Part shown: positions 4,212 to 57,930 of the stretch, in pieces
How positions within the stretch are numbered: the first letter of the stretch is position 1
Layout: each line of letters opens with the position of its first letter
DNA from: a virus
Length of the DNA stretch: 64,000 nucleotides
Strand: one strand, 5' to 3'
Virus record (IMG/VR): IMGVR_UViG_3300044984_003188
Notes under the pieces: generated by a model
What the model was told of the DNA's origin: nothing
Seen by the model: the letters and a program-made list of their open reading frames with translations, nothing else
Databases searched by the model: none
Program-made: the position numbers and the translations under genes

Positions 4212-4397
4212 TTATAAGTTTTGATCCAAGATTTGATCCCAGACTTGATCCAAGACTTGAATCCATACTTGATCCCCGACTTGATCCCCGACTTGATCCA
4301 TGACTTGATCCATGACTTGAACCTCGACTTGATCCATGACTTGAACCCTGACTTGAACCCTGACTTGAACCCTGACTTGACCCAAGACTTGCTTCAT
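4212..4397 (-). CDS. QVxD tetrapeptide-repeat microprotein
   Basis: MKQVLGQVRVQVRVQ...DQVWDQILDQNL; 12-bp repeat; TAATG-coupled to upstream ORF. Confidence 0.75.
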   Translation of the reverse strand: MKQVLGQVRVQVRVQVRVQVMDQVEVQVMDQVMDQVGDQVGDQVWIQVLDQVWDQILDQNL

Positions 4398-5036: not shown

Positions 5037-5061
5037 GTTGCTCTCCTAGATTACGTACCGA

Positions 5062-5650: not shown

Positions 5651-5676
5651 GATACCCTCAATTGATCATAGTCTGG

Positions 5677-5706
5677 TTATAATCCAACCTGGGATTAAAG
5701 TCAACC
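5677..5706 (-). promoter_or_regulatory. early promoter (repeated cassette promoter)
   Basis: GGTTGACTTTAATCCCAGGTTGGATTATAA, near-identical at 5978-6007 (-) and 6873-6903 (+). Confidence 0.85.
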
Positions 5707-5949
5707 AGAAATTTCTTCCACGTCTGCGTGCACGCTGGTGTAGCCCTCCACATAATATCCGTCGGTGCTGCGCTCCATGTCAAAGGCCTTCTGAATGGCA
5801 TCCAGCACATTGCGGGCCTGCACCGGAGGGTATACAGCCTTGTTGACGTGCGGACCCGGATCATCCGTAGGGTATACAAAGGTCAGCGTAACCCTGTAGG
5901 TCTTCATCGGGGCAGGCTTACGGAAAAAACCAAACAGCTTGCAGATCAT
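5701..5949 (-). CDS. hypothetical early protein
   Basis: GAGG RBS then MICKLFG; stop codon lies in the next -35 box. Confidence 0.7.
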   Translation of the reverse strand: MICKLFGFFRKPAPMKTYRVTLTFVYPTDDPGPHVNKAVYPPVQARNVLDAIQKAFDMERSTDGYYVEGYTSVHADVEEISG

Positions 5950-5977
5950 CTTTAGACCCTCATTCATCATAGTCTGG

Positions 5978-6007
5978 TTATAATCCAATCTGGGATTAAA
6001 GTCAACC
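5978..6007 (-). promoter_or_regulatory. early promoter (repeated cassette promoter)
   Basis: GGTTGACTTTAATCCCAGATTGGATTATAA followed by CCAGACTATGATGAATGAGG leader. Confidence 0.85.
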
Positions 6008-6181
6008 ATGGTCAGGTAAAAGGTCGAGCTTTTCACGGCGCCGGAGAGCTTCAGCCACGAGCTGTCCGATGCTGCCGCGGCAGTATGCTTCCCGCTGCAT
6101 CACACGGTCAAAAAGCACCCTTTCGTTATCAGTGAGTGTGCCGCGGATCGTATCAAAGATCAGCTTATCGTTGTCGGTCAT
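6002..6181 (-). CDS. hypothetical early protein (59 aa, not in ORF track)
   Basis: MTDNDKLIFDTIRG...LLPDHG*; GAGG RBS; promoter at 6208-6238. Confidence 0.7.
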   Translation of the reverse strand: MTDNDKLIFDTIRGTLTDNERVLFDRVMQREAYCRGSIGQLVAEALRRREKLDLLPDHG

Positions 6182-6239
6182 CTTTAACCCTCATTCATCA
6201 TAGTCCCTTTATACCATCACATGCTTTAAAAGTCAACCC

Positions 6240-6603
6240 CAACAAAATCAATAGGTTAGCCATGAATTGGTTCTAACCCATTGAAAAGATTACCAAAATT
6301 TTTTTCGGTGATCCGCAACTTTTTTGGGCATCAACCCTTACTTGGAACCAAAACCTAATCTTTTCAATGGGTTAGGCTTTCCAAGATGTCTAATCTTTTC
6401 AATGGGTTAGGTTCTAAAAACGTCCCTACCCGACCTAAGCCACTGTGGATGGGTTATCATACCGCTAGGATCACTTAGCACGATCTCAGACGTATTCTTA
6501 GCTAAGTGATTGATATGATTAGGCTTAAAAAAAATATAAGAAATATGTAGATTTTTTTGGTAATCTTTTCAATCACTTAGCCCTAACCCATTGATATCCT
6601 TAC
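6240..6603. repeat. non-coding locus 1: seven IHF-like boxes around a 49-bp core
   Basis: Boxes near 6246, 6274, 6362, 6397, 6503, 6567, 6584; core 6435-6483; homologous to 47866-48247. Confidence 0.85.
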
Positions 6604-6634
6604 GGTTGACTTTTATCCATCCTGGTGGTATAAA
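6604..6634 (+). promoter_or_regulatory. early promoter
   Basis: GGTTGACTTTTATCCATCCTGGTGGTATAAA plus GAGACTATGATGAATGAGG leader. Confidence 0.85.
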
Positions 6635-6661
6635 GAGACTATGATGAATGAGGAACGGAAG

Positions 6662-6868
6662 ATGCTCAAAGCCACCCCACTGATGATCCGATTCGTTAAG
6701 ATGCTCCCGGCTGATCAGCGGATCACTGCGGTCGTTCGAGCGGAGCGGGTCTATGCTGCTGCCCTGACTCAGCTGACTCGCTTTGATGACTTCGGGCACG
6801 AGCAGAATGTTGCCATGGCACTCGAGGCGGCTGAAGCCGAACTGGCTTATATGGCAAACCAGCCCTAA
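6662..6868 (+). CDS. hypothetical early protein
   Basis: GAGG RBS; GC-rich codon use; alternative in-frame start at 6641. Confidence 0.7.
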   Translation: MLKATPLMIRFVKMLPADQRITAVVRAERVYAAALTQLTRFDDFGHEQNVAMALEAAEAELAYMANQP

Positions 6869-6949
6869 TCAGGGGTTGACTTTAATCCCAGGTTGGATTA
6901 TAAAATGACTATGAACAAGGTGACCGATATGGAAAAGAAGGATAATGAT

Positions 6950-7162
6950 ATGAATAGACTGATTCCCGTTGCCCGCCACAATCCCACTGTATTTGTGCGG
7001 AGTGATCTTGTAGCCACCATGAATATTGTGATTCATAGCACACATGTAGAGTTGCAAATCCTTCTTACCCTTGGCACAACGGTGTGTGAGCGGTTTGACT
7101 CACTCACAGAGGCTTCTGATGCTGCGGTGCGCATCTGTAACCTATGCAATCAGGGCAAGTGA
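6950..7162 (+). CDS. hypothetical early protein
   Basis: Downstream of promoter 6873-6903; AAGGA RBS; start uncertain. Confidence 0.6.
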   Translation: MNRLIPVARHNPTVFVRSDLVATMNIVIHSTHVELQILLTLGTTVCERFDSLTEASDAAVRICNLCNQGK

Positions 7163-7389
7163 TGAACTCTTTTAATCCACAAACTGAATGGAAAGTTGTG
7201 CGGCCTGGTGAGATTACACTACCCACCACCGAGCTGACAATTCGTCTCCGGGCTGATTGGGAAGATGGCCATCGTTACCAAATCTTGTGGAAAGGTAAGG
7301 AGGTGGGTGAGAGCATGACTCTTAACTTTGCCAAAACTATAGCACATGATTGGGTGCGTGATCTTTTGACAATGGGAATTGAACCGTAA
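7162..7389 (+). CDS. hypothetical protein, paralog of 2890..3114
   Basis: EWKVVRPGEITLPTTELTI...DLLTMGIEP. Confidence 0.75.
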   Translation: MNSFNPQTEWKVVRPGEITLPTTELTIRLRADWEDGHRYQILWKGKEVGESMTLNFAKTIAHDWVRDLLTMGIEP

Positions 7390-7401
7390 GGGTGACTAAG
7401 A

Positions 7402-7596
7402 ATGACTCAAGATGAGTTTGAACAGAAGGAAGCAGAGATCCTTGAGCGCCTTCCGTACCAGCTTAGAAATGCAATCAGCTGGATGGCTTATGATCGAGGG
7501 CACAGCTGTGGATATGAAGAGATTCTTATCCATGTACGTGAAATGGTAGATGCTCTAGAGCAACCTATTCTTGATCTCATTGATAGTATGCGTTGA
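7402..7596 (+). CDS. hypothetical protein
   Basis: AYDRGHSCGYEEI motif seen in small phage proteins. Confidence 0.7.
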   Translation: MTQDEFEQKEAEILERLPYQLRNAISWMAYDRGHSCGYEEILIHVREMVDALEQPILDLIDSMR

Positions 7597-7647
7597 CTTT
7601 AATTCCAAGTTGGTGTATATATAATCCATAACCTATGGAATAATCTT

Positions 7648-7851
7648 ATGCTAAAAGCTCTATCACTCCTAACCATCTCTGTCACTCTTGCTGGGTGTGT
7701 CGCTGTGCCCGTCGATGACGTATATGGTGCACCATATACGTCATCGTCCGTGATTTATGTTCCACGACCTGTTTATATCCCTCAACCTTACTATAACTAT
7801 AATTCATATAATCCATATTATCGTCCCCGCTATTATAGGCACTATCGTTAA
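7648..7851 (+). CDS. putative lipoprotein, Pro/Tyr-rich
   Basis: Signal peptide with LAGC lipobox. Confidence 0.7.
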   Translation: MLKALSLLTISVTLAGCVAVPVDDVYGAPYTSSSVIYVPRPVYIPQPYYNYNSYNPYYRPRYYRHYR

Positions 7852-7854
7852 GTC

Positions 7855-8043
7855 ATGAATAATGTGAGGGATGAAGTTAGAGATGATTTGTGGAACTGGG
7901 TTTATGATAAAACTAATGAAGTTTGTGAGTATGGATATTCATTAGATGTTCTTGCTGCTACAGACTCTATTCTTTTTGGAATATTATTTCCACATGATGA
8001 GTTTGTTAGAATAGGATTATATAATTTAGATGACCATGGGTAA
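7855..8043 (+). CDS. hypothetical protein (possibly degenerate QVxD-family member)
   Basis: MNNVRDEVRDDLWNWVYDK; shares 21 bp with 8236..8418. Confidence 0.55.
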   Translation: MNNVRDEVRDDLWNWVYDKTNEVCEYGYSLDVLAATDSILFGILFPHDEFVRIGLYNLDDHG

Positions 8044-24280: not shown

Positions 24281-25635
24281 TGTTCAGCGATAAGCGATTT
24301 GGACTTTCAAGCAGCTTAATTGCTGCATCACGTGGTATCTTAGGTGAAGAAAAAGAAGATAAAGATAAAATCGACCCTAAAATGATGAAGGGTGGAAAAA
24401 CTAAAGTAGAACTAGAACCAAAAACTGATGATGATACTAGAGACTATGATGACAAAAAGAAGTCTATGAAAGAAGGTAAAGAGCATACCGTTCCAAAGAC
24501 TGATAAAGAAAAGAAGCTTGCCGCTCTTGCTTCACCAAAGGATAAGATCACTCATAAAGATGTGATGGTTGGTCGTGGTGTTATTGCTAAGGAAGAAGTT
24601 GATCTAGAGTCTCTGACTGAAGAAGATCTTGAAGAAGCATTAAAGAAGTCACAACCTGCAGGTGAATGGATTAAAGACTTTGTTAAGTCTGATAATCCAA
24701 AGTTTGCTGGCAAGTCAAAGAAGAAGCGTATGCAAATGGCTCTCGGTGCATACTATGCTAAGCAACGCAATGAAGAAGTTGAACTATCTGATGAAGAACT
24801 TGCACGTCTAGATGCTATTGCTCAATCTCTAGATGAAGCAAAGCCAACTATTGTTTCAGCTCCTATCCGTGGTGCTAATCAAGATCAGTCTGGTGAAAAC
24901 ACCAAGAGCACATCTACTGATTATACCATTTCCGATTCAAAGAAGATGAAGAAAGAAGAACTTGAACTAGATGAAGATAAAATATATTTTAAACACACAT
25001 CTGGCGTAAAAGGTGAAATTGAAAAATTAGGTAGAAATTATGTTACCAAAATAAAAGGCGCTATTCCTGGATATGGTCATATTTCACAAAAACATCATAA
25101 TACTAGAATTGATGCTGAAAACCATATGAAAAAAATTGGTTTTCATAAAGAAGAACTTGAACTAGATGAAGATAAAATATATTTTAAACACACATCTGGC
25201 GTAAAAGGTGAAATTGAAAAATTAGGTAGAAATTATGTTACCAAAATAAAAGGCGCTATTCCTGGATATGGTCATATTTCACAAAAACATCATAATACTA
25301 GAATTGATGCTGAAAACCATATGAAAAAAATTGGTTTTCATAAAGAAGAACTTGAACTAGATGAAGCAAAGCGTGGGCGCCCAAAGAAGAACCCAACACC
25401 AGATGATGAACAAGAAGAACATGAACATGTTATTATGCAGCTTCGTAAAGTTGTCTCAACTCATGGTGCTTTATCAGTCAAGCATCTTGATGGTAAATCC
25501 ACAAAGATTACACCACAACTTGCTCAGCATGCTTTGAATAAACACTCCGCCATGAAGACTGCCGCTGAAAAACAAGACTTCGAATCCAAGATGCACAAGA
25601 GTCATGATTCTATGAAAAGTGCTCTTGGTCAATAA
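24280..25635 (+). CDS. probable internal head polyprotein with EE(V/L)EL(D/S)E linkers
   Basis: GGAG RBS before MFSDKRFG; DFVKSDNPKFAGKSKKKR module; internal 65-aa duplication. Confidence 0.65.
   Translation: MFSDKRFGLSSSLIAASRGILGEEKEDKDKIDPKMMKGGKTKVELEPKTDDDTRDYDDKKKSMKEGKEHTVPKTDKEKKLAALASPKDKITHKDVMVGRGVIAKEEVDLESLTEEDLEEALKKSQPAGEWIKDFVKSDNPKFAGKSKKKRMQMALGAYYAKQRNEEVELSDEELARLDAIAQSLDEAKPTIVSAPIRGANQDQSGENTKSTSTDYTISDSKKMKKEELELDEDKIYFKHTSGVKGEIEKLGRNYVTKIKGAIPGYGHISQKHHNTRIDAENHMKKIGFHKEELELDEDKIYFKHTSGVKGEIEKLGRNYVTKIKGAIPGYGHISQKHHNTRIDAENHMKKIGFHKEELELDEAKRGRPKKNPTPDDEQEEHEHVIMQLRKVVSTHGALSVKHLDGKSTKITPQLAQHALNKHSAMKTAAEKQDFESKMHKSHDSMKSALGQ
24952..25366 (+). repeat. 195-bp tandem duplication bounded by three 25-bp AAAGAAGAACTTGAACTAGATGAAG linkers
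   Basis: CTTGAACTAG at 24961, 25156, 25351. Confidence 0.92.
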
Positions 25636-45999: not shown

Positions 46000-46296
46000 T
46001 TAATTCCTAATTTGATAATAAACTTCAAGTGAAATTTGATTCAAAAAAAATGGTGAGACATTATTTCGAATCTCAACCCTAAGACGTCTTGAAGAGTGAT
46101 TTTCAATTTCATCCCATACTTCATCATATATTTGATCATAGACTTGATTCCTGACTTGATGCCAGATTTGATTCCAGGCTTGATCACTGATTTGATTGTC
46201 GACTTGATTCCTGACTTGATGCCAGATTTGATTCCAGGCTTGATCACTGATTTGATCTTCGACTTGGCGCAAGACTTGATCCGAGACTCTATTCAT
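46000..46296 (-). CDS. QVxD tetrapeptide-repeat microprotein
   Basis: DQVLRQVEDQISDQAWNQIWHQVRNQV; internal 60-bp duplication 46141-46260. Confidence 0.75.
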   Translation of the reverse strand: MNRVSDQVLRQVEDQISDQAWNQIWHQVRNQVDNQISDQAWNQIWHQVRNQVYDQIYDEVWDEIENHSSRRLRVEIRNNVSPFFLNQISLEVYYQIRN

Positions 46297-46521
46297 TTAA
46301 ATTATCAATGGCGTTTGTCATGATGATGCCGACATCATTCTCGTTCATTTATTTCACCCTTTATAAGATGTGCAATCTGATTTTGGAATATAGACCAAGT
46401 TATATCATATGTTTTATCGGCGACATCACGCATACATCGTTGACTTACATTCATATATATTTTATTGCCAGCACTCATTAAAAGTTTAGTTTTAAGATTA
46501 TATTTAGCTCCAACCATAGGT

Positions 46522-47397
46522 TTAGTTTTTGCAGCAAGTGACAATGGCACGCTTCATCCAATTGGCATCATTCTTACGGCGAAGGATACCAATCTTAAGA
46601 GCCACACGGAGAGAGAGCTCACGGAGTCGGGTTGCATTCTTTTCGATGAAGTTGAGCACATCGGCCTGAGCAGTAGCATCCAGGCCGATATTCTGCAGCA
46701 GACCACCACGTACCACCTGACGGATACGGATGAGGTAGTCACGCTGATTCTTCATTGCCAGGTCGATATAATGAGCACGAGACACAAGAGCCGAAAGATG
46801 CGGCGCAAGCCGGGACCCACGGTCAATCATGGCGTCAAAATCGTAGTTGGTAATAAAGATCACGGTACCATCGAACTGAAAGCTCTTGGGCATGCGCTCG
46901 GCCGACTCATCGTCAATCAGCGTACCCTCGGTCATATACGAGATGATGCGCTTGTCGGTAGTGTCCAGAGCGGCCTTGAGCAGACCGATGGCAGTCTCGT
47001 CAAGGAACACATCGTCGGCATCGTCAAACACGAGCACCGAACCAGCAGTACGATGCTGATACAGCAGCTTGTAAAGTGCCGGAGCCTTGACGTAGCCCTT
47101 CACGATACGATGGGAGGTGGCATTGGGATCCCATGCCTCGAGCGCCTTCTCGACGGTGAACGACTTGCCGAGACCGGCAGGACCGGACACGATCAGCGCA
47201 CGAACGTCACCGTCGATGGCTGCATTTGCCATGTCGGAGAGGATTTCAAAACGGTCGTTGAGCTTCTGCTCAATTTCCTCGTCAGTCTCAACGATAACGG
47301 GCTCAGAGGGCTGAACCACGTTCATGATCTTGTCCATCTTGTCCGTCTTAGCGGTGCGGGTCTTACGGTAGCCATTTTTCGGAACGCCACGGGGCAT
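46522..47397 (-). CDS. AAA+/P-loop ATPase, early, GC-rich
   Basis: GPAGLGKS, VLVFDDAD, LKAALD, IFITN, ALVSR. Confidence 0.9.
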   Translation of the reverse strand: MPRGVPKNGYRKTRTAKTDKMDKIMNVVQPSEPVIVETDEEIEQKLNDRFEILSDMANAAIDGDVRALIVSGPAGLGKSFTVEKALEAWDPNATSHRIVKGYVKAPALYKLLYQHRTAGSVLVFDDADDVFLDETAIGLLKAALDTTDKRIISYMTEGTLIDDESAERMPKSFQFDGTVIFITNYDFDAMIDRGSRLAPHLSALVSRAHYIDLAMKNQRDYLIRIRQVVRGGLLQNIGLDATAQADVLNFIEKNATRLRELSLRVALKIGILRRKNDANWMKRAIVTCCKN

Positions 47398-47448
47398 GTC
47401 AGTGTCCTTTTGTGTATAAGCAAACCTTATCCCAGATTGGGATTAAAG

Positions 47449-47571
47449 TCAACCGTTATTTTCGATGGTGGAGAGGTATTCTTCGTATTCAGCAAGGTCG
47501 GCAGCGGTCGGCTCGTAAGCTTCCTCACAGGAAACCTCGAGGTCAAAATCGTCGGGATAGGATATGTTCAT
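47449..47571 (-). CDS. small acidic hypothetical protein
   Basis: MNISYPDDFDLEV; AAGG RBS; stop in next -35. Confidence 0.6.
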   Translation of the reverse strand: MNISYPDDFDLEVSCEEAYEPTAADLAEYEEYLSTIENNG

Positions 47572-47578
47572 TAACCTT

Positions 47579-47809
47579 TCAGTCATTCCAGATTGTGAGG
47601 GTGATGCAACCCATGCTCTGCTGATACAGCATAGCGCCGAGGTCGCCACCAGGTGTCATCTTAGCGCTTATACGGAGAAAGGGCTGCTTGTTACCCAGAG
47701 TGGTCCTGATGCTGTTGGGCCATTCACCCGGGCGCATGCGCAGCTCAGAGGCTTCAGCGCTGAAGCAGTGCACCTTGTGTTCGGTCACGTCGGAGGCGGT
47801 AATGATCAT
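47579..47809 (-). CDS. hypothetical early protein
   Basis: AEASEL motif; GAGG RBS; promoter 47835-47863. Confidence 0.7.
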   Translation of the reverse strand: MIITASDVTEHKVHCFSAEASELRMRPGEWPNSIRTTLGNKQPFLRISAKMTPGGDLGAMLYQQSMGCITLTIWND

Positions 47810-47865
47810 GTCTACCTCATTCATCATAGTCTCTTTATACCACCACCCAAGATAAAAGTCAATCC

Positions 47866-48247
47866 TAAGGATATCAATGGGTTAGCCAGGTAGACGCCTT
47901 AACCTATTGAAAAGATTATAAAAACTTTTTTCGGTGCACCAAAACTTTTTTCGATCGACCATCGGTCATGGACCTGCTCACCGCACTCAAGATGGTAAAA
48001 CCTAATCTTTTCAATAGGTTAGCAGTTTTATAAAAGTCAATGATATCAATGGGTTAGGTGCTCACGACGGTTCTCGGCAGTCTAAGCCACTGTGGATGGG
48101 TTATCATACCGCTAGGACCACCTAGCACGACTAGAGCACGGTTGCCATCCTAACCCATTGATATCATTAGGACTCAAACTTTTTTCAAAAAAATGCAATT
48201 TTTTTCCTCAATCATATCAATGACTTAAGCCTAACCCATTGACAAAG
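47866..48247. repeat. non-coding locus 2: seven IHF-like boxes around a 49-bp core
   Basis: Boxes near 47872, 47900, 48009, 48044, 48151, 48215, 48232; core 48082-48130. Confidence 0.85.
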
Positions 48248-48307
48248 CAGGGGTTTACTTTTATCTCATATGGGGTTATAAAGAGACTATGATGAAGGAA
48301 ACGAACA

Positions 48308-48552
48308 TGACCATCACGGTCTATGACCTCAGAAACAAATCTTTCTCACATGGTAACCTTGACTATAAAGTGTATGTGGTTATGGCCGATGGTAAAGAAC
48401 CCAAAGTTTATAGCAGTTACTTTAGAATCAACGCCATTCGTGTGCTTAAAGATCTTGGTCATGATGTAACTGAGATTGATATCTATACCAAGCGTGATGC
48501 TAAAAAAGCTCTCGGCAAAGATCTTTTTGACAAAATTTACAACCCTCGCTAA
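48308..48552 (+). CDS. hypothetical early protein
   Basis: Promoter 48253-48282; track ORF 48289-48552; start approximate. Confidence 0.6.
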
Positions 48553-48625
48553 ATTACCTATTGACTTTAATCTCAGATTAAGATATAAGTTAAGTCATAC
48601 CAACAACACCAACGAAAGACCTACA

Positions 48626-48850
48626 ATGACCGAATTTTCCGGCGACAAGGCCAAGACCAACGTGACCATGGCATCCGATGGGCGCTACCACACCTCCCGT
48701 GACAAGTACCGCAAGGGCGATCTGCGGAAGACCAATCTTGAGGAGTACGGCTCCACATCGTTCGGCACCGATGGGTACTACGACGGTGCTCCCGGCCGCA
48801 AGAAGCATAAGAAGTGGAGCCGGACGGAAAAGCCGTCCTATCTCGACTGA
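48626..48850 (+). CDS. hypothetical early protein
   Basis: Promoter TTGACTTTAATCTCAGATTAAGATATAAG at 48561. Confidence 0.65.
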   Translation: MTEFSGDKAKTNVTMASDGRYHTSRDKYRKGDLRKTNLEEYGSTSFGTDGYYDGAPGRKKHKKWSRTEKPSYLD

Positions 48851-48911
48851 GTGGGTTGACTTTAATTCCAGATTAAGATATAAGTTAAGTTATAACAAGG
48901 AGACTACCAAC

Positions 48912-49085
48912 ATGGATATCTCGACCGTTCTGTCCCGTATGTACGCCTTCGCCAAGACCACCAAGGACGATGTGGCCTCTAATGAGGTTGCCCGGGCCGC
49001 CGACCGTCTGGCGCACCAAGGGCCGTTTGAGGCTCAGCTGACCTCAGAGGAAGTCTCGGTGATTTCCCGCTTTGTCGGTGCATAA
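48912..49085 (+). CDS. hypothetical early protein
   Basis: Promoter at 48857; AGGAG RBS. Confidence 0.7.
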   Translation: MDISTVLSRMYAFAKTTKDDVASNEVARAADRLAHQGPFEAQLTSEEVSVISRFVGA

Positions 49086-49150
49086 GCCTATTGACTTTTT
49101 TCCATAACCTGGTATAATGGTTAGTGACCAAATAATGATGGTATAAGGTT

Positions 49151-49324
49151 ATGGAAAAAGTTAAGAATCAAGTCTTGGGTTCAGTCATGGGTCAAGTGGA
49201 TAAAAAAGTTTATAATCAAGCCTTGAATCAAGTCCAGGATCAAATCTTTGATCAAGTCTATAATCAAGTCTATAATCAAGTCTGGAATGAAATCTGTTAT
49301 CAAGTCTTGATGGAGATAGAATGA
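49151..49324 (+). CDS. QVxD tetrapeptide-repeat microprotein (57 aa, not in track)
   Basis: MEKVKNQVLGSVMGQVDKKVYNQALNQVQDQIFDQVYNQVYNQVWNEI; own promoter at 49091. Confidence 0.75.
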   Translation: MEKVKNQVLGSVMGQVDKKVYNQALNQVQDQIFDQVYNQVYNQVWNEICYQVLMEIE

Positions 49325-49497
49325 TGTATCTGGTTAGTTTTACCAACTTTGGTTATACTAAGGACTTTTCCAATAAGGAACAAGCTCTGACTTATATGGA
49401 GAGGGCATGCCTTGAGGCACTGCTGATGACCGAGAAGGGTGAAGTCCTTGCTGGATTCTCTCCTATCACTGGCTTCAAAACCGAAAAAAGTGGTTGA
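49321..49497 (+). CDS. hypothetical protein (58 aa, not in track)
   Basis: MMYLVSFTNFGY...FSPITG; ATGA overlap; stop in next -35. Confidence 0.65.
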   Translation: MMYLVSFTNFGYTKDFSNKEQALTYMERACLEALLMTEKGEVLAGFSPITGFKTEKSG

Positions 49498-49553
49498 CTT
49501 TAAACCTAGTTAAGATATAATCCTACTATCAAAACAAACACGGAGACTTAAAA

Positions 49554-50507
49554 ATGGCTCACAACATTGAAATGGTTGACGGCAAGGCTCAGATGGCATA
49601 TGTGGGTGAAACCCCGTGGCATGGTCTGGGCCGTGAGGTTCCTGCTGATCTTACTCCAGATCAGATGCTTGAGGCTGCTGGTATCAACTGGGAAGTTGAG
49701 AAGATCAAGGCCTATGCTAAGGTCGGTGGTAAGAACATCGACGTGGGTCGTTCGGCTCTTGTCCGTAAGAGTGACAACAAGATTCTAGACATCGTGTCGA
49801 ACGACTGGAATCCGGTGCAGAACGCTGAAGCGTTTGAATTCTTCAACGACTTCATCGCCGAGGGTGACATGGAAATGCACACCGCTGGCTCTCTGGCTGA
49901 TGGTCAGATTGTCTGGGCTCTGGCTAAGGTCAAGGACGGCTTTGACCTGTTCGGTGGTGATGAGGTCGAATCGTATCTGCACTTCACCAACTTCCACAAG
50001 TATGGCTTCTCCACTGACGTTCGGTTCACTCCGATTCGTGTGGTCTGCAATAACACCCTAACGCTTTCTCTTAACACCAAGGTCGAGCGCTTTGTCAAGA
50101 TTAGTCATCGCCGTGAGTTCAACGGTGACAACGTAAAGCTCATGCTTGGTATTGCTCAAGAGAAGCTTGCTAAGTATAAGGAAATGGCTGCTTTCCTCGG
50201 CACCAAGCGCTACACCAACGAGAATATGGTCGACTACTTCAAGCGTGTGTTCCCTGTTGCTGGTGGTCCGGATGCTAAGAAGGAACTTAGCAAGAATGCT
50301 AAGGTTGCTCTGTCCGTGGTCGATACTCAGCCCGGTGCAGACTTTGCTCGTGGATCCTTCTGGCAGCTCTTCAATACGGTGACCTATACTGCTGATCATC
50401 TGATGGGTCGCACTCAAGACTCTCGTCTAACCTCTGCTTGGTACGGCAATGGTCGTAACATGAAGACCCGGGCGCTAGAGACTGCCATCGAAATGGCAAA
50501 CGCCTAA
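49554..50507 (+). CDS. DUF932 family protein
   Basis: MAHNIE...ETPWHGLG, PVQN, TAGSL, TPIRVVCNNTL. Confidence 0.9.
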   Translation: MAHNIEMVDGKAQMAYVGETPWHGLGREVPADLTPDQMLEAAGINWEVEKIKAYAKVGGKNIDVGRSALVRKSDNKILDIVSNDWNPVQNAEAFEFFNDFIAEGDMEMHTAGSLADGQIVWALAKVKDGFDLFGGDEVESYLHFTNFHKYGFSTDVRFTPIRVVCNNTLTLSLNTKVERFVKISHRREFNGDNVKLMLGIAQEKLAKYKEMAAFLGTKRYTNENMVDYFKRVFPVAGGPDAKKELSKNAKVALSVVDTQPGADFARGSFWQLFNTVTYTADHLMGRTQDSRLTSAWYGNGRNMKTRALETAIEMANA

Positions 50508-50665
50508 AAAAACGGTTGACAAAACTTACTACCTGATATATAAGTAACTTATCAAAACATAGAAAAGGACTAAAATAATATGAGCGAATTTCATTCTGTG
50601 CTGTTGGCATCACTTCTACTATTTGTGTTGTGTGGTGTTGTGGCATTGGTGAACTAATAGACAGC

Positions 50666-50705
50666 GTCATCTCTATACAACTGAAGTCATCTCTATACAA
50701 CTGAA
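50666..50705 (+). repeat. 20-bp perfect tandem repeat
   Basis: GTCATCTCTATACAACTGAA x2. Confidence 0.9.
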
Positions 50706-50725
50706 AAACACAAGGAAAAACAACT

Positions 50726-51079
50726 ATGAAAACTTTTACTCGTATGGCTGCCCAGGGCGATTTCATCATTCTGCGGATTAATGATATTCCCGCAAATGTC
50801 GAGCGCCTCGCACCAAATGACCGTAACCACATTGTGGTTGCACATTCCGAAACCGGTCATGACCACGTGATGGTTGCCGACCGTGTAACCGCCTACAAGA
50901 CTACTGGTACCAAGGACGTTGATCTTTATGAGATGTTCCTCTCCGTTGAGGCTCCTACAGAGATCAATCATCTTCGTACCTTTGATACCCACGAGACTCT
51001 TCTGGTTCCTCCTGGTAACTATACTGTTCGCCGCCAGCGTGAATATGTTGCCGAGGGTTTCCGTCGGGCTCAGGACTAA
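50726..51079 (+). CDS. His-rich partner protein typically upstream of DUF6745 genes
   Basis: AQGD...HSETGHDH...H....H...PPGNYTVRRQREY. Confidence 0.75.
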   Translation: MKTFTRMAAQGDFIILRINDIPANVERLAPNDRNHIVVAHSETGHDHVMVADRVTAYKTTGTKDVDLYEMFLSVEAPTEINHLRTFDTHETLLVPPGNYTVRRQREYVAEGFRRAQD

Positions 51080-51118
51080 TCTTTCTTACTCTGTGAATCC
51101 ATAAAAGGGAATTATATT

Positions 51119-51964
51119 ATGAAGAAGATCGACAAGCTTACTGCAGAACAGACCGCTCAGCTCGAGGTGTATCGTGACAAGTGGATCAAGATCGGTCTTT
51201 CCACCGACCGAGTTGATCCAGATGCAGCTAAGGCTGCTGTAGAACTTCTGTATAAGTGCGGTGGTCTTAACGCACCTGATGAGATCGTGTTTGCTAACGG
51301 TCCTCTGCATGCTAAGAAGCTTCTAGGTAGCCGATCGGTTACGGAGAGTTGTGTATACGGCTCTCATGAGGCCGCTTGGCTTTCCTTTTATGACTTCATG
51401 CAGAATGAAGTTGGTATTGACCTTGATGGTAAGCTTGATGGTCTCTGGGCTGTTGCCAAAACTTGTGGTTGGGTATCCTGCTACGATACTCTTGCAGTAG
51501 TGCAGGATCGCCCAGTCCATATCAAGATGGATGAGGACAACCGACTCCATTGTGAAACTGGTCCTGCCATTCTATATGCCGATGGTTTTGCTGTCTATGC
51601 TTGGCATGGCGTTCGAATTCCTTCCGAATGGATTGAGGATAAGACTAGTCTGACTGCTCAGAAGGCTCTTACCTGGGAAAACATGGAGCAGCGTCGAGCC
51701 GCTTGTGAAATCCTTGGTTGGGTCAATATCCTTGGTGCACTAAACGCCAAGGTAATTGATGAGGATGAAGATCCCCAGATTGGTACTCTTCTGGAGGTTG
51801 ATATTCCCGAGATTGGTCGGGAGAAGTTCCTCAAGGTTCTTTGCGGTACTGGTCGTGAGTTTGCCATTCCGGTCCCACCGGATATGACTACAGCACTTGG
51901 TGCTAATGCATGGACCTACGATATTGATCCTGATCTTCTTAAGACACTTGAGGTCCGGACCTAA
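51119..51964 (+). CDS. DUF6745-like protein lacking the internal repeat tract
   Basis: KLTAEQ...KWIKIGLST; GSHEAAWLSFYDF; RLHCETGPAILYADGFAVYAWHGV; NMEQRRA; ANAWTY. Confidence 0.75.
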   Translation: MKKIDKLTAEQTAQLEVYRDKWIKIGLSTDRVDPDAAKAAVELLYKCGGLNAPDEIVFANGPLHAKKLLGSRSVTESCVYGSHEAAWLSFYDFMQNEVGIDLDGKLDGLWAVAKTCGWVSCYDTLAVVQDRPVHIKMDEDNRLHCETGPAILYADGFAVYAWHGVRIPSEWIEDKTSLTAQKALTWENMEQRRAACEILGWVNILGALNAKVIDEDEDPQIGTLLEVDIPEIGREKFLKVLCGTGREFAIPVPPDMTTALGANAWTYDIDPDLLKTLEVRT

Positions 51965-51982
51965 AAAGTCCGGACTACCTTT

Positions 51983-52156
51983 ATGAATGGGATTATGGAT
52001 CAAGTTTGGGATCAAGTCTATGGTCAAATCCGGCGTCAAGTCTATGATCAAGTCTTGCGCCAAGTCGAAGATCAAATCAGACTTCAAGTTTGGAATCAAG
52101 TTTGGGATCAAGTCTATCGTCAAGTTTATGATCAAGTCATAAATTCAAATGAATAA
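51983..52156 (+). CDS. QVxD tetrapeptide-repeat microprotein (57 aa, not in track)
   Basis: MNGIMDQVWDQVYGQIRRQVYDQVLRQVEDQIRLQVWNQVWDQVYRQVYDQV. Confidence 0.78.
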   Translation: MNGIMDQVWDQVYGQIRRQVYDQVLRQVEDQIRLQVWNQVWDQVYRQVYDQVINSNE

Positions 52157-52189
52157 AAAAGTTTATAATCAAGTCAAGTTAGAGAACAA

Positions 52190-52306
52190 ATGAAAAAAGA
52201 TGTATTTACTCGATCCATAAACTTGATAAGTTATAGAATTTATGATCAAATTATAGCACAAATAGAAGATCAAATCTATTCTAAAATTTTAGAAGATAAT
52301 CTGTGA
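52190..52306 (+). CDS. degenerate QIxD-repeat microprotein (38 aa)
   Basis: RIYDQIIAQIEDQIYSKI. Confidence 0.55.
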   Translation: MKKDVFTRSINLISYRIYDQIIAQIEDQIYSKILEDNL

Positions 52307-52311
52307 TACAA

Positions 52312-52488
52312 ATGCGTAAAGTTTCCACTCAATGTCTTGATAAATTCTATATACAACTCTGGCATCAAGTTTGTATTAAAATTGACAATGAATCCGTAAA
52401 TTATATTTGGGAACAATCTAGTATTTTTAGTATAGTCTGGGATCAAGTTCAGATGCCTATCAAGGATCAATTGACTGAATTAAATTAA
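52312..52488 (+). CDS. degenerate QVxD-repeat microprotein
   Basis: QLWHQV...IWEQ...VWDQV...IKDQL. Confidence 0.6.
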   Translation: MRKVSTQCLDKFYIQLWHQVCIKIDNESVNYIWEQSSIFSIVWDQVQMPIKDQLTELN

Positions 52489-52497
52489 GGAATAAAA

Positions 52498-52752
52498 ATG
52501 GATAATATTCAAATCACACTATCTTATAATCGCTTTCCTGAAAATCAAAATCCAAATACTGTAATGGGTGAATCATATCAACATACTTTTACCATTACTG
52601 ATGAAGCCACTTATTTTTCTGTTTTAGAAAAAGTTGAAGTGATGCTTAAGAGTCTAGGTTATGAGTTCAATGGTCATCTAGAATTTAGTGGTCTGGTAAC
52701 TGATGATGCCGTTCAGAGTGATAATGTTGTAGTTCTTCGCCCTGAGGAATAA
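52498..52752 (+). CDS. hypothetical protein
   Basis: AAGGA RBS; LKSLGYEF. Confidence 0.7.
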   Translation: MDNIQITLSYNRFPENQNPNTVMGESYQHTFTITDEATYFSVLEKVEVMLKSLGYEFNGHLEFSGLVTDDAVQSDNVVVLRPEE

Positions 52753-52794
52753 GTACTATAAACCATATTAGCGTCAAGTCAAAGATCAAAACCT

Positions 52795-52956
52795 ATGAAA
52801 CAAGTCTGGGAACAAATTTGTGGTCAAATTTGGGAACATGTCTGGGATCAAGTAGAAAATCAAATCAGTGATCAAGTCAGGAGTCAAGTATGGGGTCAAG
52901 TCAGACTTCAAGTCAGAAGTCAAATCTGGGATCAAGTAGAAGATCAAGCCCTATGA
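52795..52956 (+). CDS. QVxD tetrapeptide-repeat microprotein (53 aa, not in track)
   Basis: MKQVWEQICGQIWEHVWDQVENQISDQVRSQVWGQVRLQVRSQIWDQVEDQAL. Confidence 0.78.
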   Translation: MKQVWEQICGQIWEHVWDQVENQISDQVRSQVWGQVRLQVRSQIWDQVEDQAL

Positions 52957-53132
52957 ATTATGTTCAAGATCAAGTTGTGAGCTTTGTTAGGGGTCAAGTC
53001 TGGACTAAAATTATGAAACAAGTCATGGTTCAAATCGAGAGACAAACCCGAAATCAGGTCGTGGATCCAGTCTGGGATCAAGTCTCGGATCAAGTCCGCC
53101 GTCAAGTCCGAAGTCAAGTACTGAATCCATGA
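52953..53132 (+). CDS. QVxD tetrapeptide-repeat microprotein
   Basis: MNYVQDQVVSFVRGQVW...VWDQVSDQVRRQVRSQV; ATGA coupled. Confidence 0.78.
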   Translation: MNYVQDQVVSFVRGQVWTKIMKQVMVQIERQTRNQVVDPVWDQVSDQVRRQVRSQVLNP

Positions 53133-53311
53133 ATAGTATTCGAGATAAGATCTTAGCTAATATTTGGCATCAAGTTTATAATAAGGTTTATTATCAAGTT
53201 AGTAATCAAATTTGGGATAAAACTACCGATCAAGTTTTGGATAAAGTTTATTCTGAAGTAACGATTGAAACTAGGATTCAAGTCAAGGATCAAATATGGG
53301 ACATGTCATGA
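53129..53311 (+). CDS. QVxD tetrapeptide-repeat microprotein
   Basis: IWHQVYNKVYYQVSNQIWDK; ATGA coupled. Confidence 0.75.
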   Translation: MNSIRDKILANIWHQVYNKVYYQVSNQIWDKTTDQVLDKVYSEVTIETRIQVKDQIWDMS

Positions 53312-53508
53312 ACCAAGTCAGGGGTCAAGTCTGGAATCAAATCAGATTTCAAGTATGGGATCAAATCTGGGATCAAATAGAAGATCAAGTCCGGAATCAA
53401 ATCTGGGATCAAGTAGAAGATCAAGTCAGATTTCAAGTCTGTGATCAAGTCAGATTTCAAGTCTGTGATCAAGTCTGTGATGAATTCTATGTTCAAACCC
53501 GAAATTAA
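53308..53508 (+). CDS. QVxD tetrapeptide-repeat microprotein
   Basis: MNQVRGQVWNQIRFQVWDQIWDQIEDQVRNQIWDQV; ATGA coupled. Confidence 0.78.
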   Translation: MNQVRGQVWNQIRFQVWDQIWDQIEDQVRNQIWDQVEDQVRFQVCDQVRFQVCDQVCDEFYVQTRN

Positions 53509-53522
53509 ATTATGGGTAAATT

Positions 53523-53699
53523 ATGAAAACTGTTATTTCAGATATTCGTAGTTGTCAATATTCACACGCTTTTAATAAAGTTCAAGATACTACTTCTGCA
53601 GATACCCAAAATAAAGTTGCAATGCTTATTTGGGATAAAGTTTTCATCTCTACTTTATATAAGTATATTAGCACATTTGACGAAGATTTAGGAAATTAA
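53523..53699 (+). CDS. hypothetical protein (58 aa), possibly degenerate repeat-family member
   Basis: NKVQD...NKVAMLIWDKV. Confidence 0.5.
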   Translation: MKTVISDIRSCQYSHAFNKVQDTTSADTQNKVAMLIWDKVFISTLYKYISTFDEDLGN

Positions 53700-53700
53700 T

Positions 53701-54843
53701 ATGGCACGTGCTGCAGCAACACCAAAGTCCTTAAAGGTAAAAAAGTCTGTCAAAGTCAAGACGACTAGGACAGAGCAATATCTGATTAATATCAAGTATA
53801 TGGGTGAAGAACCAACTTTTTCTACTGATAGGCAATTAACTGACCAAGAGTACAGTTCTGCTTTATCTTGGTATAATTACATGTGTTCTAGATCTGATTC
53901 ACGTGAATATCTAGAAACCTATCTAAAGAATACCAATCGACTGATTGATCTTAAAAATTTAAAGTCGGTACCGGATAACAAGTTTATTGAGCATGCCGGT
54001 TGGATTGCTCGTATGCTTTCTCGTGGCGTACCGCTTACCAAGCGTTCATATAATCATATGAACCTCAAGCTGGTAGAAATGCTCAAGCACTCTACTGGGA
54101 AAGAGGAAAAGGTTGAGACTAAAAAAGTAATTAATATCCAAGATCGCATCAAAGAAAAAGTGTCAAACTTCATTGGTCTATTTGATGAAGAAATTGATAA
54201 GTGTGGATATACAATTTCAATGTATGAAATGCTTGAAAAGCATGAAATTCAACCTACCCTAGCCAATCGAGTAGCAGAATTTTTCAAACCTATTGCTGAT
54301 GAAGCGCAGGAACTCCTTAAAAAAGATTGCAATCCTCAACTCAAAGAGGGTTTCAATCATCTAACCAAGGAACAGATCAAGCAAAGGGCTGCTTTTTATA
54401 GATCCATTTTGGATGATTGTGATCGTTATGCAGGCAACGTCAAGAAGCAAAAGCAACAACGCACCCCGAAGCCCATGACAGCAGAAAAGAAATTAAAGCA
54501 TTTTAAATTTATGCGTGAAAGCAAAGAACACAAGCTAGTTTCCATCAATCCAGAAAAAGTCCTTGGTTGTCAAGAACTATGGGCATTCAATATTAAGTAT
54601 AATACACTCACAAGGTTTATTGCGCTTGATCGTGGTGGATTAGATGTTGACAGAATGACTATTACCAAGTATAATGGTGATACCAAAACATATAAACTTA
54701 CATCAAAGAAAGTCAAGGATACACTTGAAACCATCCTGTCTGGTGGTAAAAGGGTTTTATCCAAAACACTTGCAGAACTCAAAGAGTTTCCTATTCTGCA
54801 GGAACGTATCAATGAAAATGTAATTCTACTGAAGGTGGTATAA
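53701..54843 (+). CDS. conserved T4-like hypothetical protein
   Basis: 380 aa; ALSWYNY, QLKEGF, LVSINP, RINENVILL. Confidence 0.8.
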   Translation: MARAAATPKSLKVKKSVKVKTTRTEQYLINIKYMGEEPTFSTDRQLTDQEYSSALSWYNYMCSRSDSREYLETYLKNTNRLIDLKNLKSVPDNKFIEHAGWIARMLSRGVPLTKRSYNHMNLKLVEMLKHSTGKEEKVETKKVINIQDRIKEKVSNFIGLFDEEIDKCGYTISMYEMLEKHEIQPTLANRVAEFFKPIADEAQELLKKDCNPQLKEGFNHLTKEQIKQRAAFYRSILDDCDRYAGNVKKQKQQRTPKPMTAEKKLKHFKFMRESKEHKLVSINPEKVLGCQELWAFNIKYNTLTRFIALDRGGLDVDRMTITKYNGDTKTYKLTSKKVKDTLETILSGGKRVLSKTLAELKEFPILQERINENVILLKVV

Positions 54844-55070
54844 TGCAAATCGAAGTCAAAAAGCCTCTAGATGCTCCAATCGGAAAAGCAGAGATGGTGA
54901 AAACTCCATGGGGTACTGAAGAATTGGCTCAAGTATTTAAAGTGATTGATTATATCAGTGGCGATATTAAGTATGCTGTAATTAATAATCCTGTTGGCAA
55001 CTTTAAAGTTCGTTGTAGTGCATTTAGAGTCCGATAAATATATTGACATTTTTAAGATATAGGATATATT

Positions 55071-56142: not shown

Positions 56143-56367
56143 ATGATTTTGAATAAAATGAATAACTTTAATATTGAAATTGAAGTTCTTATTAGTGAAA
56201 AGAAGATCAACTACATTGATGCTGTTGTGATGTGGTGCGAAGACAATAATATTGAAGTTGAATATGCAGCAGATTTAATTAAAAAAGATATGGTTTTACA
56301 TTCCAAAATTAAAGCGGATGCTGAGAGTCTTAATATTCTAAAAAGAACAGCGCAACTTCCAGTATGA
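56143..56367 (+). CDS. gp33: late transcription coactivator (T4 gp33)
   Basis: YIDAVVMWCEDNNIEVE...KIKADAESLN; position before gp59. Confidence 0.9.
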   Translation: MILNKMNNFNIEIEVLISEKKINYIDAVVMWCEDNNIEVEYAADLIKKDMVLHSKIKADAESLNILKRTAQLPV

Positions 56368-56942
56368 CACCGTATGAGTGCTATGTTGACTATTTAGCGC
56401 TTAAAAGACATTTTACCACAGAGTCATATGATTATTTTAAATATAATGGTAAAGTTAGTGCTAAAAGAGATACATTTGAAAAGCGAAAAGATAAATTCTT
56501 CTTTGAAAAACTTTCAAAACACCGTGACCCACACGGTGTTATACTTGCTAATCTATTAAAATCCAAAGATATATGGATAAAAGAATTAGTTAGTGATAAG
56601 GCACAAGAAAACTATAACTTATGGATCAAAAAAACACAATCAATAACAAGACTTGTTGAATCTGAGCTTTGGTTGTTGGATGATAATTTTGATTCAAACT
56701 TTAAAGTAGTTTCAGGTAATCATCCTCCATTACTAAAACTATTTTTATCGGATAAACTTTCATTAGAAAGTCTTATTATTTTAACTACAATTTCTGGATG
56801 CATTCCACATTGGTGCAAAAAAATGAAGGATGATTTTATCTGGGATGATGTAAACAAAAAGATAATTAAGACCAAACCGTTTATTCATTACGATGTTGAG
56901 AAAATAAAGAAAATATGCCTTGACAGATTCTCTACTTCGTGA
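56364..56942 (+). CDS. gp59: helicase loader (T4 gp59)
   Basis: YLALKRHF...YDYFKYNGK...FEKRKD. Confidence 0.92.
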   Translation: MTPYECYVDYLALKRHFTTESYDYFKYNGKVSAKRDTFEKRKDKFFFEKLSKHRDPHGVILANLLKSKDIWIKELVSDKAQENYNLWIKKTQSITRLVESELWLLDDNFDSNFKVVSGNHPPLLKLFLSDKLSLESLIILTTISGCIPHWCKKMKDDFIWDDVNKKIIKTKPFIHYDVEKIKKICLDRFSTS

Positions 56943-57018
56943 TAAATAAGTATAGAGGTAAGACCCTCTGTAAAAATATACAAATATACTATACATACAA
57001 AATATAAGGAATATATAA

Positions 57019-57930
57019 ATGGACTTTTCTGCACTAAAAAAGACTTCTGGTAAAAGCTCACTAGAAAAGCTTACACAGGAACTTGCTAAGATTTCTACCC
57101 AGAGTGATTCTAAGGGTGACGCCCGTTTTTGGTATCCGAATGTGGACAAGGCTGGTAATGGTTATGCTGTTATTCGTTTTCTCCCTGCTCCTCCAAATGA
57201 AGATGTCCCATTTGTTCGAATCTTTGAACATGGTTTCAAGGGTCCAACAGGTCTCTGGTATATTGAAAACTCTCTGACTACTATTGGTCAAACAGACCCT
57301 GTCGGTGAAATGAATTCCCGTCTGTGGAATTCCACAACCGATGACGAGTCTCCTGCTCGAAAACAAGCCCGAGCCCAAAAGCGTAAGCTAACTTATGTAT
57401 CAAATATCTATGTGATCCAGGATCAACAGAATCCTGAGAATAACGGAAAGGTATTTCTATTCAAGTTTGGTAAGAAGATTTTTGATAAACTTAATGAAGC
57501 TATGAACCCACAGTTTCAGGATGAAGATCCACTAAACCCATTTGATCTCTGGAGTGGTGCAAACTTCAAACTCAAGATCAGAAATGTTGAGGGTTATCGT
57601 AATTACGATAAGTCTGAATTTGCTTCACCAGGATCACTTGCAGATGATGATTCTGCCATGGAAACTATCTGGAAGCAAGAACATTCTATTCAATCCTTCC
57701 TTTCTCCTTCCAATTTCAAGAGCTATGAAGAGCTTTCCAAGAGGCTTGCAGTTGTTCTTGGTACGGACAAGACTGCGGCTCGAACATCGAAGCCTAAGGT
57801 TGAAGATGATGCCCCATGGGTTGAACCAAAGGAAGCTAAGTCTGCACCCGCACGTGAGCCAATGATGACTCAGTCTGATGGTGGAGATGATGAAGATCTA
57901 GAGTTCTTCCGAAATCTTGCTAAGAACTAA
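57019..57930 (+). CDS. gp32: single-stranded DNA-binding protein (T4 gp32)
   Basis: GNGYAVIRFLP, WYIENSLTT, FGKKIFDK, GANFKLK, acidic tail. Confidence 0.96.
   Translation: MDFSALKKTSGKSSLEKLTQELAKISTQSDSKGDARFWYPNVDKAGNGYAVIRFLPAPPNEDVPFVRIFEHGFKGPTGLWYIENSLTTIGQTDPVGEMNSRLWNSTTDDESPARKQARAQKRKLTYVSNIYVIQDQQNPENNGKVFLFKFGKKIFDKLNEAMNPQFQDEDPLNPFDLWSGANFKLKIRNVEGYRNYDKSEFASPGSLADDDSAMETIWKQEHSIQSFLSPSNFKSYEELSKRLAVVLGTDKTAARTSKPKVEDDAPWVEPKEAKSAPAREPMMTQSDGGDDEDLEFFRNLAKN

Follow-up and report, generated by a model that had tools for sequence, protein, structure and literature searches.

A repeat-less DUF6745 gene beside free tetrapeptide-repeat mini-genes in a phage genome: a tract apparently detached, multiplied and predicted to bind in trans

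The module described here lies in a 64,000-nucleotide stretch of viral DNA (IMG/VR record IMGVR_UViG_3300044984_003188), which as a whole is referred to as the window, and it comprises a gene for a DUF6745 protein, a gene for a small partner protein with His-rich motifs, and an array of very short open reading frames (ORFs) built from 12-bp units. DUF6745 is a large family without known function or fold, and its most striking trait is an internal, hypervariable tetrapeptide-repeat tract; the DUF6745 of the window lacks this tract, and repeats of the same type are present beside it as separate genes. Sequence comparison indicates that in whole lineages of large freshwater phages the tract has come away from the protein and been multiplied, giving arrays of mini-genes, and complex modelling predicts that a mini-protein binds to DUF6745. 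The whole account, in which the mini-genes are real early genes, the tract has been detached and its products bind DUF6745 in trans, is given about an even chance of being correct. A literature search found no paper on DUF6745 or on its repeat motif strings and none describing a repeat-less DUF6745 with detached repeat genes.

An earlier note, made from the DNA alone, had assigned the protein to DUF6745, and a hidden Markov model search bears this out: it matches PF20530 at 121.3 bits against a gathering cut-off of 27, with residues 73-272 falling on positions 3-198 of the 206-position profile. The N-terminal domain (LTxEQ, W, GLST) is present as well, as residues 1-70 align with 55 homologues in which L7, Q11, W22, G26, L27, T29 and Y45 are invariant or nearly so. 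A 12-residue linker, KKLLGSRSVTESC, occupies the exact alignment position of the tract in homologues; no period-12 DNA is found within the gene, nor the internal-tract architecture of 100-200 amino acids (aa) with period 4. The note's further statements, that in homologues the tract separates the N-terminal region from the GxH(D/E)AxWL motif and that the window protein is without it, thus agree with the alignments, the former in GenBank, IMG/VR and bacterial sets. Tract-bearing proteins (PF20530; phrog_31813) have both the N- and the C-domain in common with the window protein and adjoin a His-motif partner too. Their tracts are of period 4, span 100-200 aa and belong to types DQVx, DSVx, SQLx and DQLx; at the linker position they read DQVWDQVGAQV and similar, which is the [Q/S][V/L]xx repeat type of the free ORFs. 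The difference is one of packaging: in these homologues, of which the ORF at L067:6001-7194 is a further example, the repeat is one covalent insert of ~100-200 aa, whereas the window has no insert and about eleven separate genes of 38-98 aa.

The tract is usual in the family. Two GenBank phage homologues have SSLx or DQLx over ~130-190 residues at the tract position, and the tract in 27 IMG/VR homologues reads DQVx, DSVx, SQLx or DQLx. QSM05137.1 (Mycobacterium phage prophiGD102-1 gp38) and UOF77368.1 (Caudoviricetes sp. cta39025) are 32-45% identical to the window protein over residues 68-281 and 84-280, and the DUF6745 of the Microcystis phage Ma-LMM01/MaMV group is ~30% identical over residues 86-213 only. 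In bacterial genome assemblies, 51 of 53 untruncated loci are ORFs of 318-579 aa with the tract or another long insert, and the additional types DAAT, NAT, SAA and SAV occur there; the possibility that most homologues lack the tract, which would have undone the idea of a split, is therefore not borne out. A profile search of 1.84 billion representatives placed DUF6745 in 13,104 clusters at 50% identity; among the best 150 of these, 58 are short and without a tract, a clear period-4 tract is present in 46, and the other 46 carry an insert that is longer, degenerate or non-periodic. Tract-less proteins of 280-295 aa form a large clade of T4-like phage proteins, and the family as a whole is spread over phages, regions resembling prophages and assemblies of bacterial genomes.

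Some members and neighbours lie at the edge of the family. A short DUF6745-like gene in genome G008 escaped the PF20530 search and was recovered with a profile of our own. A 190-aa DUF6745-like protein (L204:1504-2076), one that the Pfam model did not detect, consists of the N-domain followed by just the beginning of the C-domain; its 58-kb viral record has terminal repeats and two free ORFs of SQV type, with 122 aa (L142:1406-1774) and 71 aa (3863-4078). A second family of 171-237 aa (L084:2419-2934 and L218:5203-5916) has an N-domain starting M..TTLN.IR.H.PC and a terminal period-4 DAAR/DAAW tract. In two contigs unrelated to each other its genes are only a few kb away from a tract-bearing DUF6745, and DUF6745 may therefore not be the only family with tetrapeptide tracts of such style.

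Free mini-proteins were treated as an informal class of 40-120 aa with their own start, consisting mostly of [Q/S][V/I/L]xx units, in genomes whose DUF6745 is tract-less. ORFs A, D, E, G, U, M and N clearly belong to it, and ORFs B, C, F and H are degenerate (Table 1). The eight ORFs which the earlier note had described after DUF6745, five clear and three degenerate, were all found on the + strand at the positions proposed, as was the chaining of D, E, F and G by ATGA overlaps, and three more copies (U, M and N) were added. Tandem Repeats Finder and our own period-12 detector mark 51979-52149, 52788-52955, 53036-53250 and 53295-53510 in the array, and in the rest of the window only the three further copies. 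At all four sites the frame reading QV has an ATG and a non-repeat head and tail, and it follows the strand of the neighbouring genes. The start of ORF N overlaps the stop of an upstream ORF (4397-4603, - strand). ORF U is collinear with a 60-aa QV ORF in locus L008, and a counterpart of ORF M is present in the same position at the start of L003 and L004. The short remnant before ORF B has a head like the MNKV heads of L003 ORFs, and a start-less repeat remnant directly precedes 52795; read from the sequence, both show decay and rebirth of units.

Pfam and PHROG matches of the mini-proteins are all sub-threshold noise, and the mini-proteins are not pentapeptide-repeat proteins (PF00805), as the period is 12 nt or 4 aa and no Pfam match was obtained. 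Searching GenBank phages with ORF G by tblastn gave a single match, the internal tract of prophiGD102-1 gp38, while a word-indexed search of 5.8 billion proteins scored nothing, a result reflecting uncalled genes and low complexity, not absence. Public gene calls omit or miscall the QV arrays at L003:4766-5485 and, in the other assembly, L004:4733-5147: the array is uncalled in one and overlain by opposite-strand ORFs in the other. Mini-genes of this kind are thus systematically absent from protein databases or entered there incorrectly.

The link between free repeats and a tract-less DUF6745 was assessed in 80 IMG/VR loci and seven others, all centred on DUF6745, which were reduced to 69 non-redundant loci by removing identical C-domains; free repeats were scored as period-12 DNA outside the DUF6745 gene in flanks of ~6 kb. 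The free ORFs do go with repeat-less genes: they are present in 29 of 43 such loci and in 2 of the 26 tract-bearing ones, the remaining 24 having none (Fisher p 9e-7 for the 2x2 table). The two exceptions are an unrelated DAAR/DAAW repeat protein (L084) and an acidic low-complexity run (L086). In the bacterial-genome set just 2 of 53 untruncated loci are repeat-less (L205 and L216, the latter with a GC content of 0.57), and both have free QV arrays. Arrays often start <100 nt from the DUF6745 stop, or just upstream of the gene, or between it and the partner. Elsewhere they consist of ORFs of 45-120 aa with overlapping stop and start codons, more than 17 at one locus, and the arrays of other phages have genome-specific conserved heads (MNSVK, MKSVK, MISVK) and tails. 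A complete 197-kb genome and a 98-kb contig with family-type ORFs each contain a repeat-less DUF6745, the 58-kb record mentioned above contains the 190-aa DUF6745-like gene, and the other family-type cases are fragments with an estimated completeness of 14-29%. No clear counter-example, that is free family-type ORFs in a DUF6745-less genome, was encountered, although few whole records were searchable and the test is weak.

Two candidate sources of such evidence were set aside. G005, the only complete record without DUF6745, holds merely unrelated simple repeats, and an exact DNA scan of IMG/VR for four CAAGTC units does not serve as an unbiased census, its hits being mostly unrelated repeats (QVQG, QVAP, giant-virus contigs). 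A further observation concerns L045:3667-4193, where three ORFs of 57-63 aa follow a repeat-less DUF6745 and have array-like tails (QLRDDLED and similar) with the period lost; from their sequences they could belong to the mini-protein family as members that diverged long ago.

Array content turns over rapidly between close relatives. In L008, whose DUF6745 is 89% identical to that of the window, ORFs A and U are collinear, and B, C and D-H are missing or reduced. On a longer scale, the type of free repeat follows that of the nearest tracts: the free ORFs of the repeat-less loci L058 and L062 are of Q-L type and their nearest relatives carry SQL tracts, whereas the main clade is of Q-V type, a match which fits either repeated fission or co-evolution. 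In the best tree these two loci form a second repeat-less lineage beside SQL-tract proteins (Shimodaira-Hasegawa-like approximate likelihood-ratio support of 92), and L216 lies nearest to DQV-tract proteins; these placements suggest independent origins of the split. The tract-bearing L065 nests inside the repeat-less clade.

The earlier note had suggested that the peptides could act in trans, and complex prediction supports binding to DUF6745. The window DUF6745 alone is modelled by AlphaFold2 with a predicted local distance difference test (pLDDT) score of 92.9. When it was modelled with ORF G, using our own alignment A2 for DUF6745, three controls and three runs, the complex scored 0.81 against 0.01 for the best of the three controls; among 80 solved complexes 58 attain such a mark, as do 2 among 110 mismatched pairs, counts which are only rough because DUF6745 entered with an alignment of our own. 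At least 96% of contacts recur between the runs and the pLDDT of the partner chain is at least 85, and as no relative has been solved the high score does not reproduce a known structure of such a complex. Confident contacts in ORF G are made by 14 of 14 Q, 14 of 14 V/I, 11 of 14 first variable residues (x1) and 4 of 14 second ones (x2, D/N; p 7e-7). The predicted interface on DUF6745 comprises the N-domain helices, linker 73-80, helix 82-94 and strands near a conserved cluster of D138, H144, D155 and H163, and it holds the conserved L7, W22, G26, L27, Y45, P62 and W87, residues retained whether the tract is fused or detached. The groove of the model is made up of residues 15-27, 44-50 and 73-94. 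The Q-V/I ladder is thus predicted to occupy a conserved groove next to the position of the missing tract, with D/N mostly facing outward. Across 19 rows, the groove residues did not clearly vary together with the type of anchor (QV, SV, QL).

The His-motif partner adjoins DUF6745 in nearly every locus whose flanks permit judging. Its H40, S41, E42, T43, H47, H82, R84 and H89 are invariant and its HSETGHxH and DTHE motifs are kept; the model is all-beta (pLDDT 88.9), with the invariant His and Glu residues clustered. Wide fold searches with Foldseek and VIA-align gave no match for the partner (best Z 2.9, root-mean-square deviation (rmsd) 4.8 A, 80 aligned) or for DUF6745 (best Z 4.3, rmsd 4.4 A, 68 aligned), and searches of PDB sequences with DUF6745 and with the partner returned nothing usable. 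PADLOC gave no match at E 0.01 for DUF6745, the partner, the DUF932 protein, the AAA-like protein or the 380-aa protein encoded nearby. At L035:5737-6855 partner and DUF6745 lie in a single frame of 373 open codons, and they are separate in the near-identical L038; the joint frame is either a natural fusion or an assembly difference.

Taken together, these data can be accommodated in the following mechanism. The mini-genes would be translated early phage genes for small proteins, each protein a ladder of four-residue units with an invariant Gln, an invariant Val/Ile and two variable residues, and each a free-standing, multiplied counterpart of the tract that in other DUF6745 proteins lies between the N-terminal and C-terminal domains. 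The tract-less DUF6745 of the T4-like lineage would rejoin the mini-proteins in trans through the invariant ladder, which would lie in the conserved groove of the N-domain and the first helix past the old insertion point. Most D/N and some W/R/Y positions would point outward and form a quickly changing face rich in W, R, Y, D, N and G. Arrays would grow, shrink and homogenise through slippage or unequal exchange among the 12-bp units, so that one phage would make alternative versions of one complex, each composed of DUF6745, the His-motif partner and one mini-protein. From the hypervariability, early position and multiplicity of the mini-genes we infer that the targets of the variable face are ones that change in the course of phage-host conflict. 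An enzyme acting on the target would be made up of conserved D/H/E residues in DUF6745 (putatively D138, H144, E146, D155 and H163) together with the His cluster of the partner (putatively H40, E42, H47, H82 and H89). Of this account, the anatomy of the module, the homology of the repeat type, the link to a repeat-less DUF6745 and the fast turnover are observed, and the binding is a prediction. The furthest-reaching form of the idea is tentative and on balance doubtful: DUF6745 and its partner would be an undescribed phage enzyme or effector whose tetrapeptide-ladder target surface has been made into a plug-in library, the many co-expressed mini-proteins competing for the groove, so that one infection could bring several specificities to bear on variable host targets, defence proteins for instance, with quick renewal by slippage.

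Several results weigh against binding in trans, and a number of them favour the strongest alternative, in which the mini-proteins derive from the tract but act alone, for example as self-assembling helical proteins or decoys, their adjacency to DUF6745 being a trace of origin and of shared early expression. ORFs U, M and N lie 2-47 kb from DUF6745, QV ORFs are also found far from it in large contigs such as G001, and the ORFs are therefore not confined to its neighbourhood. The 14 repeat-less loci mentioned above have no clear array within ~6 kb; nearby arrays are missing in L006, L013-L015 and L045-L052, and in L013-L015, where DUF6745 is 80% identical, the order is DUF6745, an 84-aa gene and a 380-aa gene with nothing between. 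Docking may merely reflect the likeness of the peptide to the in-cis tract of fused homologues, sequences already presented to language models, Shine-Dalgarno sequences are weak before the chained ORFs, and the searches made gave no fold or family clue to the function of DUF6745 or its partner. As for ancestry, one clade holding every repeat-less form is not rejected by an approximately unbiased test (p 0.31), and because the two states are clustered on the tree an independent-pairs test has only 2-4 contrasts, which is too few. Codon use in the repeats also departs strongly from that of the genome, which makes a DNA-level constraint possible within one genome. In favour of binding stand the wide margin by which the complex model passes with the invariant ladder facing the conserved groove, the near absence of free arrays beside tract-bearing genes in two independent collections, and the closeness of many arrays to the DUF6745 stop or their place between DUF6745 and partner. 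Mini-proteins acting alone are thus considered a real contender, if an improbable one.

The codon data bear on another alternative, that the 12-bp repeats work as DNA or RNA (iterons, a recombination or slippage hotspot, GATC-rich sites) and that the ORFs are by-products of a stop-free repeat. The earlier note had argued that Q and V/I are kept through different codons, which would point to selection on the protein. Within the window this is weakly true as a description and fails as an argument: the Q anchor is CAA in 93 of 94 units of the arrays (71-73% in the long ORFs of the window), the V anchor GTC in 49 of 67 (73%, against 13%) and the I anchor ATC in 15 of 25 (against 21%), the excess of GTC and ATC running counter to the codon preference of the genome. 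The repeats are free of stops in each of the three forward frames and on the opposite strand, and GATC is present in many units. The argument does hold between genomes. Anchor codons are invariant or nearly so in each array or tract, yet the pair differs from genome to genome, those seen being CAA GTC (window), CAG GTC, CAA GTG, CAG CTC, CAG CTT, CAG TTG, AGC GTC and AGC CTC; as these differ synonymously and conservatively, [Q/S][V/L/I] appears to be conserved at the protein level, and the pattern fits protein-level constraint combined with concerted evolution. Within a genome the units are homogenised, with variation at both x codons; in tracts of high GC the first of these encodes mostly W, R or G (NGG, one base apart) and the second D, A or G (GNC), as expected from point changes on a frozen unit shuffled by slippage. 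In the arrays of the window, variation at the x positions is not adenine-specific. The same repeat is moreover translated in frame inside thousands of DUF6745 proteins, and starts, heads, tails and stop-start coupling, like agreement with the direction of the neighbouring genes, are confined to the QV frame. A role for the repeats as nucleic acid is accordingly regarded as unlikely.

That the ORFs are decaying junk, which an unstable repeat has left behind without function in an early region that is hyperplastic, would suit the degenerate ORFs B, C, F and H, the start-less remnants and the variable content between close relatives; intact coupled arrays persist, however, in lineages whose DUF6745 proteins are 41-60% identical and whose GC ranges from 0.37 to 0.57, and the periodic Q-V ladder is retained while the x positions change, which makes this reading very improbable. 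Least probable of all is the idea of silent cassettes that diversify the tract of DUF6745 or of a co-infecting relative as recombination donors, a donor role having been raised in the earlier note as well. Exchange would be permitted by the similarity of the copies (including an inverted pair, 46118-46271 and 53297-53450, 71% over 154 nt) and would suit the nested position of L065, but the resident DUF6745 has no tract to receive them and each copy has its own start, head, tail and translational coupling.

Comparison with known systems helps to place a tract-less DUF6745 served by detached mini-proteins. Pentapeptide-repeat proteins such as Qnr and MfpA are stand-alone beta-helices of period 5 that mimic DNA; they resemble the mini-proteins in their very short period, conserved hydrophobic anchor and variable exposed positions, and differ in that the mini-proteins have period 4 and that a scaffold partner and gene arrays are absent from pentapeptide systems. 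Type I restriction-modification hsdS shufflons and diversity-generating retroelements vary one expressed locus by inversion or mutagenic reverse transcription, and are alike in concept, a constant core being combined with variable target-recognition parts encoded nearby; in the window, by contrast, every variant is its own coupled ORF and presumably all are expressed. No recombinase or reverse transcriptase came to notice in the module, although no search aimed at either was made. The halves of split genes tend to pass complex prediction through likeness. The present case is like gene fission in that a segment held in cis in most relatives is here encoded apart and predicted to dock back, and unlike it in that the detached piece has been multiplied into a diverging family and is a hypervariable part, not a fixed domain. 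If the docking is true, the module would be a natural scaffold-plus-library design, would offer a handle on the target of the tract by swapping of the mini-protein, and would account for some of the small ORFs in T4-like early regions that so far lack an explanation, where mini-genes of this kind are mostly missed or called on the wrong strand.

Table 1. Coordinates of the module and associated features in the window
Feature	Position	Strand	Remarks
DUF6745 protein, repeat-less, 281 aa	51119..51964	+	PF20530 E 4.4e-35
His-motif partner, 117 aa (AQGD, HSETGHxH, DTHE, RQREY)	50726..51079	+	phrog_27831 E 4.3e-7
ORF A, QVxD microprotein, 57 aa	51983..52156	+	collinear with L008 4296-4484
Remnant of 14 codons (MNKKVYNQVK...)	52149..52193	+	ATGA overlap into ORF B, read from sequence
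ORF B, degenerate, 38 aa	52190..52306	+	
ORF C, degenerate, 58 aa from ATG	52312..52488	+	
84-aa non-repeat gene within array	52498..52752	+	tblastn matches in L003, L008, L010, L013, others
ORF D, QVxD microprotein, 53 aa	52795..52956	+	
ORF E, QVxD microprotein, 59 aa	52953..53132	+	ATGA-coupled to D
ORF F, partly degenerate, 60 aa	53129..53311	+	ATGA-coupled to E
ORF G, cleanest QV/IxD microprotein, 66 aa	53308..53508	+	ATGA-coupled to F; used in docking
ORF H, degenerate, 58 aa	53523..53699	+	
ORF U, QVxD/N microprotein, 57 aa, upstream of module	49151..49324	+	period-12 region 49192-49319
ORF M, QVxD/N microprotein, 98 aa	46000..46296	-	beside AAA-like gene 46522-47397 (-)
ORF N, QVxD microprotein, 61 aa from ATG	4212..4397	-	47 kb from DUF6745
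Sigma-70-type (T4 early-like) promoter before ORF U	49091..49118	+	TTGACT, 16-nt spacer, TG, TATAAT; 11/12 matches
Second strong sigma-70-type promoter, before DUF932 gene	49494..49521	+	11/12 matches
DUF932 protein, context gene	49554..50507	+	PF06067 E 6e-37, phrog_1221

The genomic setting was read from syntenic relatives carrying the corresponding Pfam families, and by this reading the phage is T4-like: gp59 and gp32 lie just downstream of the module (56364-57930), and baseplate and lysozyme-type genes follow on the opposite strand. A megablast search of GenBank phages gave no match to 49000-54900, leaving the region without counterpart in any isolated phage there. The DUF932 gene is syntenic in close relatives (L003-L016 and others), and no family is assigned to the 84-aa gene by Pfam and PHROG searches. 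The segment from 46 to 52 kb has a G+C content of 0.45-0.47 against 0.33-0.37 in its flanks, and many sigma-70-type promoter elements are scattered through it, the two strongest being those of Table 1; the one before ORF U belongs to an element family in common with elements D8 and D18. On the + strand between 49521 and 54647 no promoter of at least 10/12 matches was found outside repeats and no terminator-like site outside coding sequence, from which we infer a single early transcript covering DUF932, partner, DUF6745, array and the 380-aa gene. With strong promoters at 49091 and 49494, early expression of the mini-genes is plausible.

Other features of the window stand apart from the module. 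Two G+C-rich islands (0.44-0.47 against 0.33-0.37), at 4000-8000 and 46000-52000, both contain QV mini-genes and share repeated sigma-70-like elements, GTTGACTTTAATCC...TATAA, at 6875, 7592, 48253, 48560, 48855 and 49493, with reverse-oriented ones at 5661, 5962 and 6193; they look like early-gene modules of common origin. Each island also has one of a pair of non-coding loci, 6189-6600 and 47815-48242, which lie ~41.6 kb apart and are 78-80% identical, with a ~49-bp near-identical core (6435-6483 and 48082-48130) and several short inverted boxes; Rfam gave no match in either. A perfect 195-nt tandem duplication is present at 24952-25341, with a partial third unit from 25342 and a diverged one at 24769. 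Near the start of the window are a tRNA-Trp with CCA anticodon (310-384) and a 461-aa ORF (1469-2854) which, judged by eye from its sequence alone, resembles a nicotinamide phosphoribosyltransferase.

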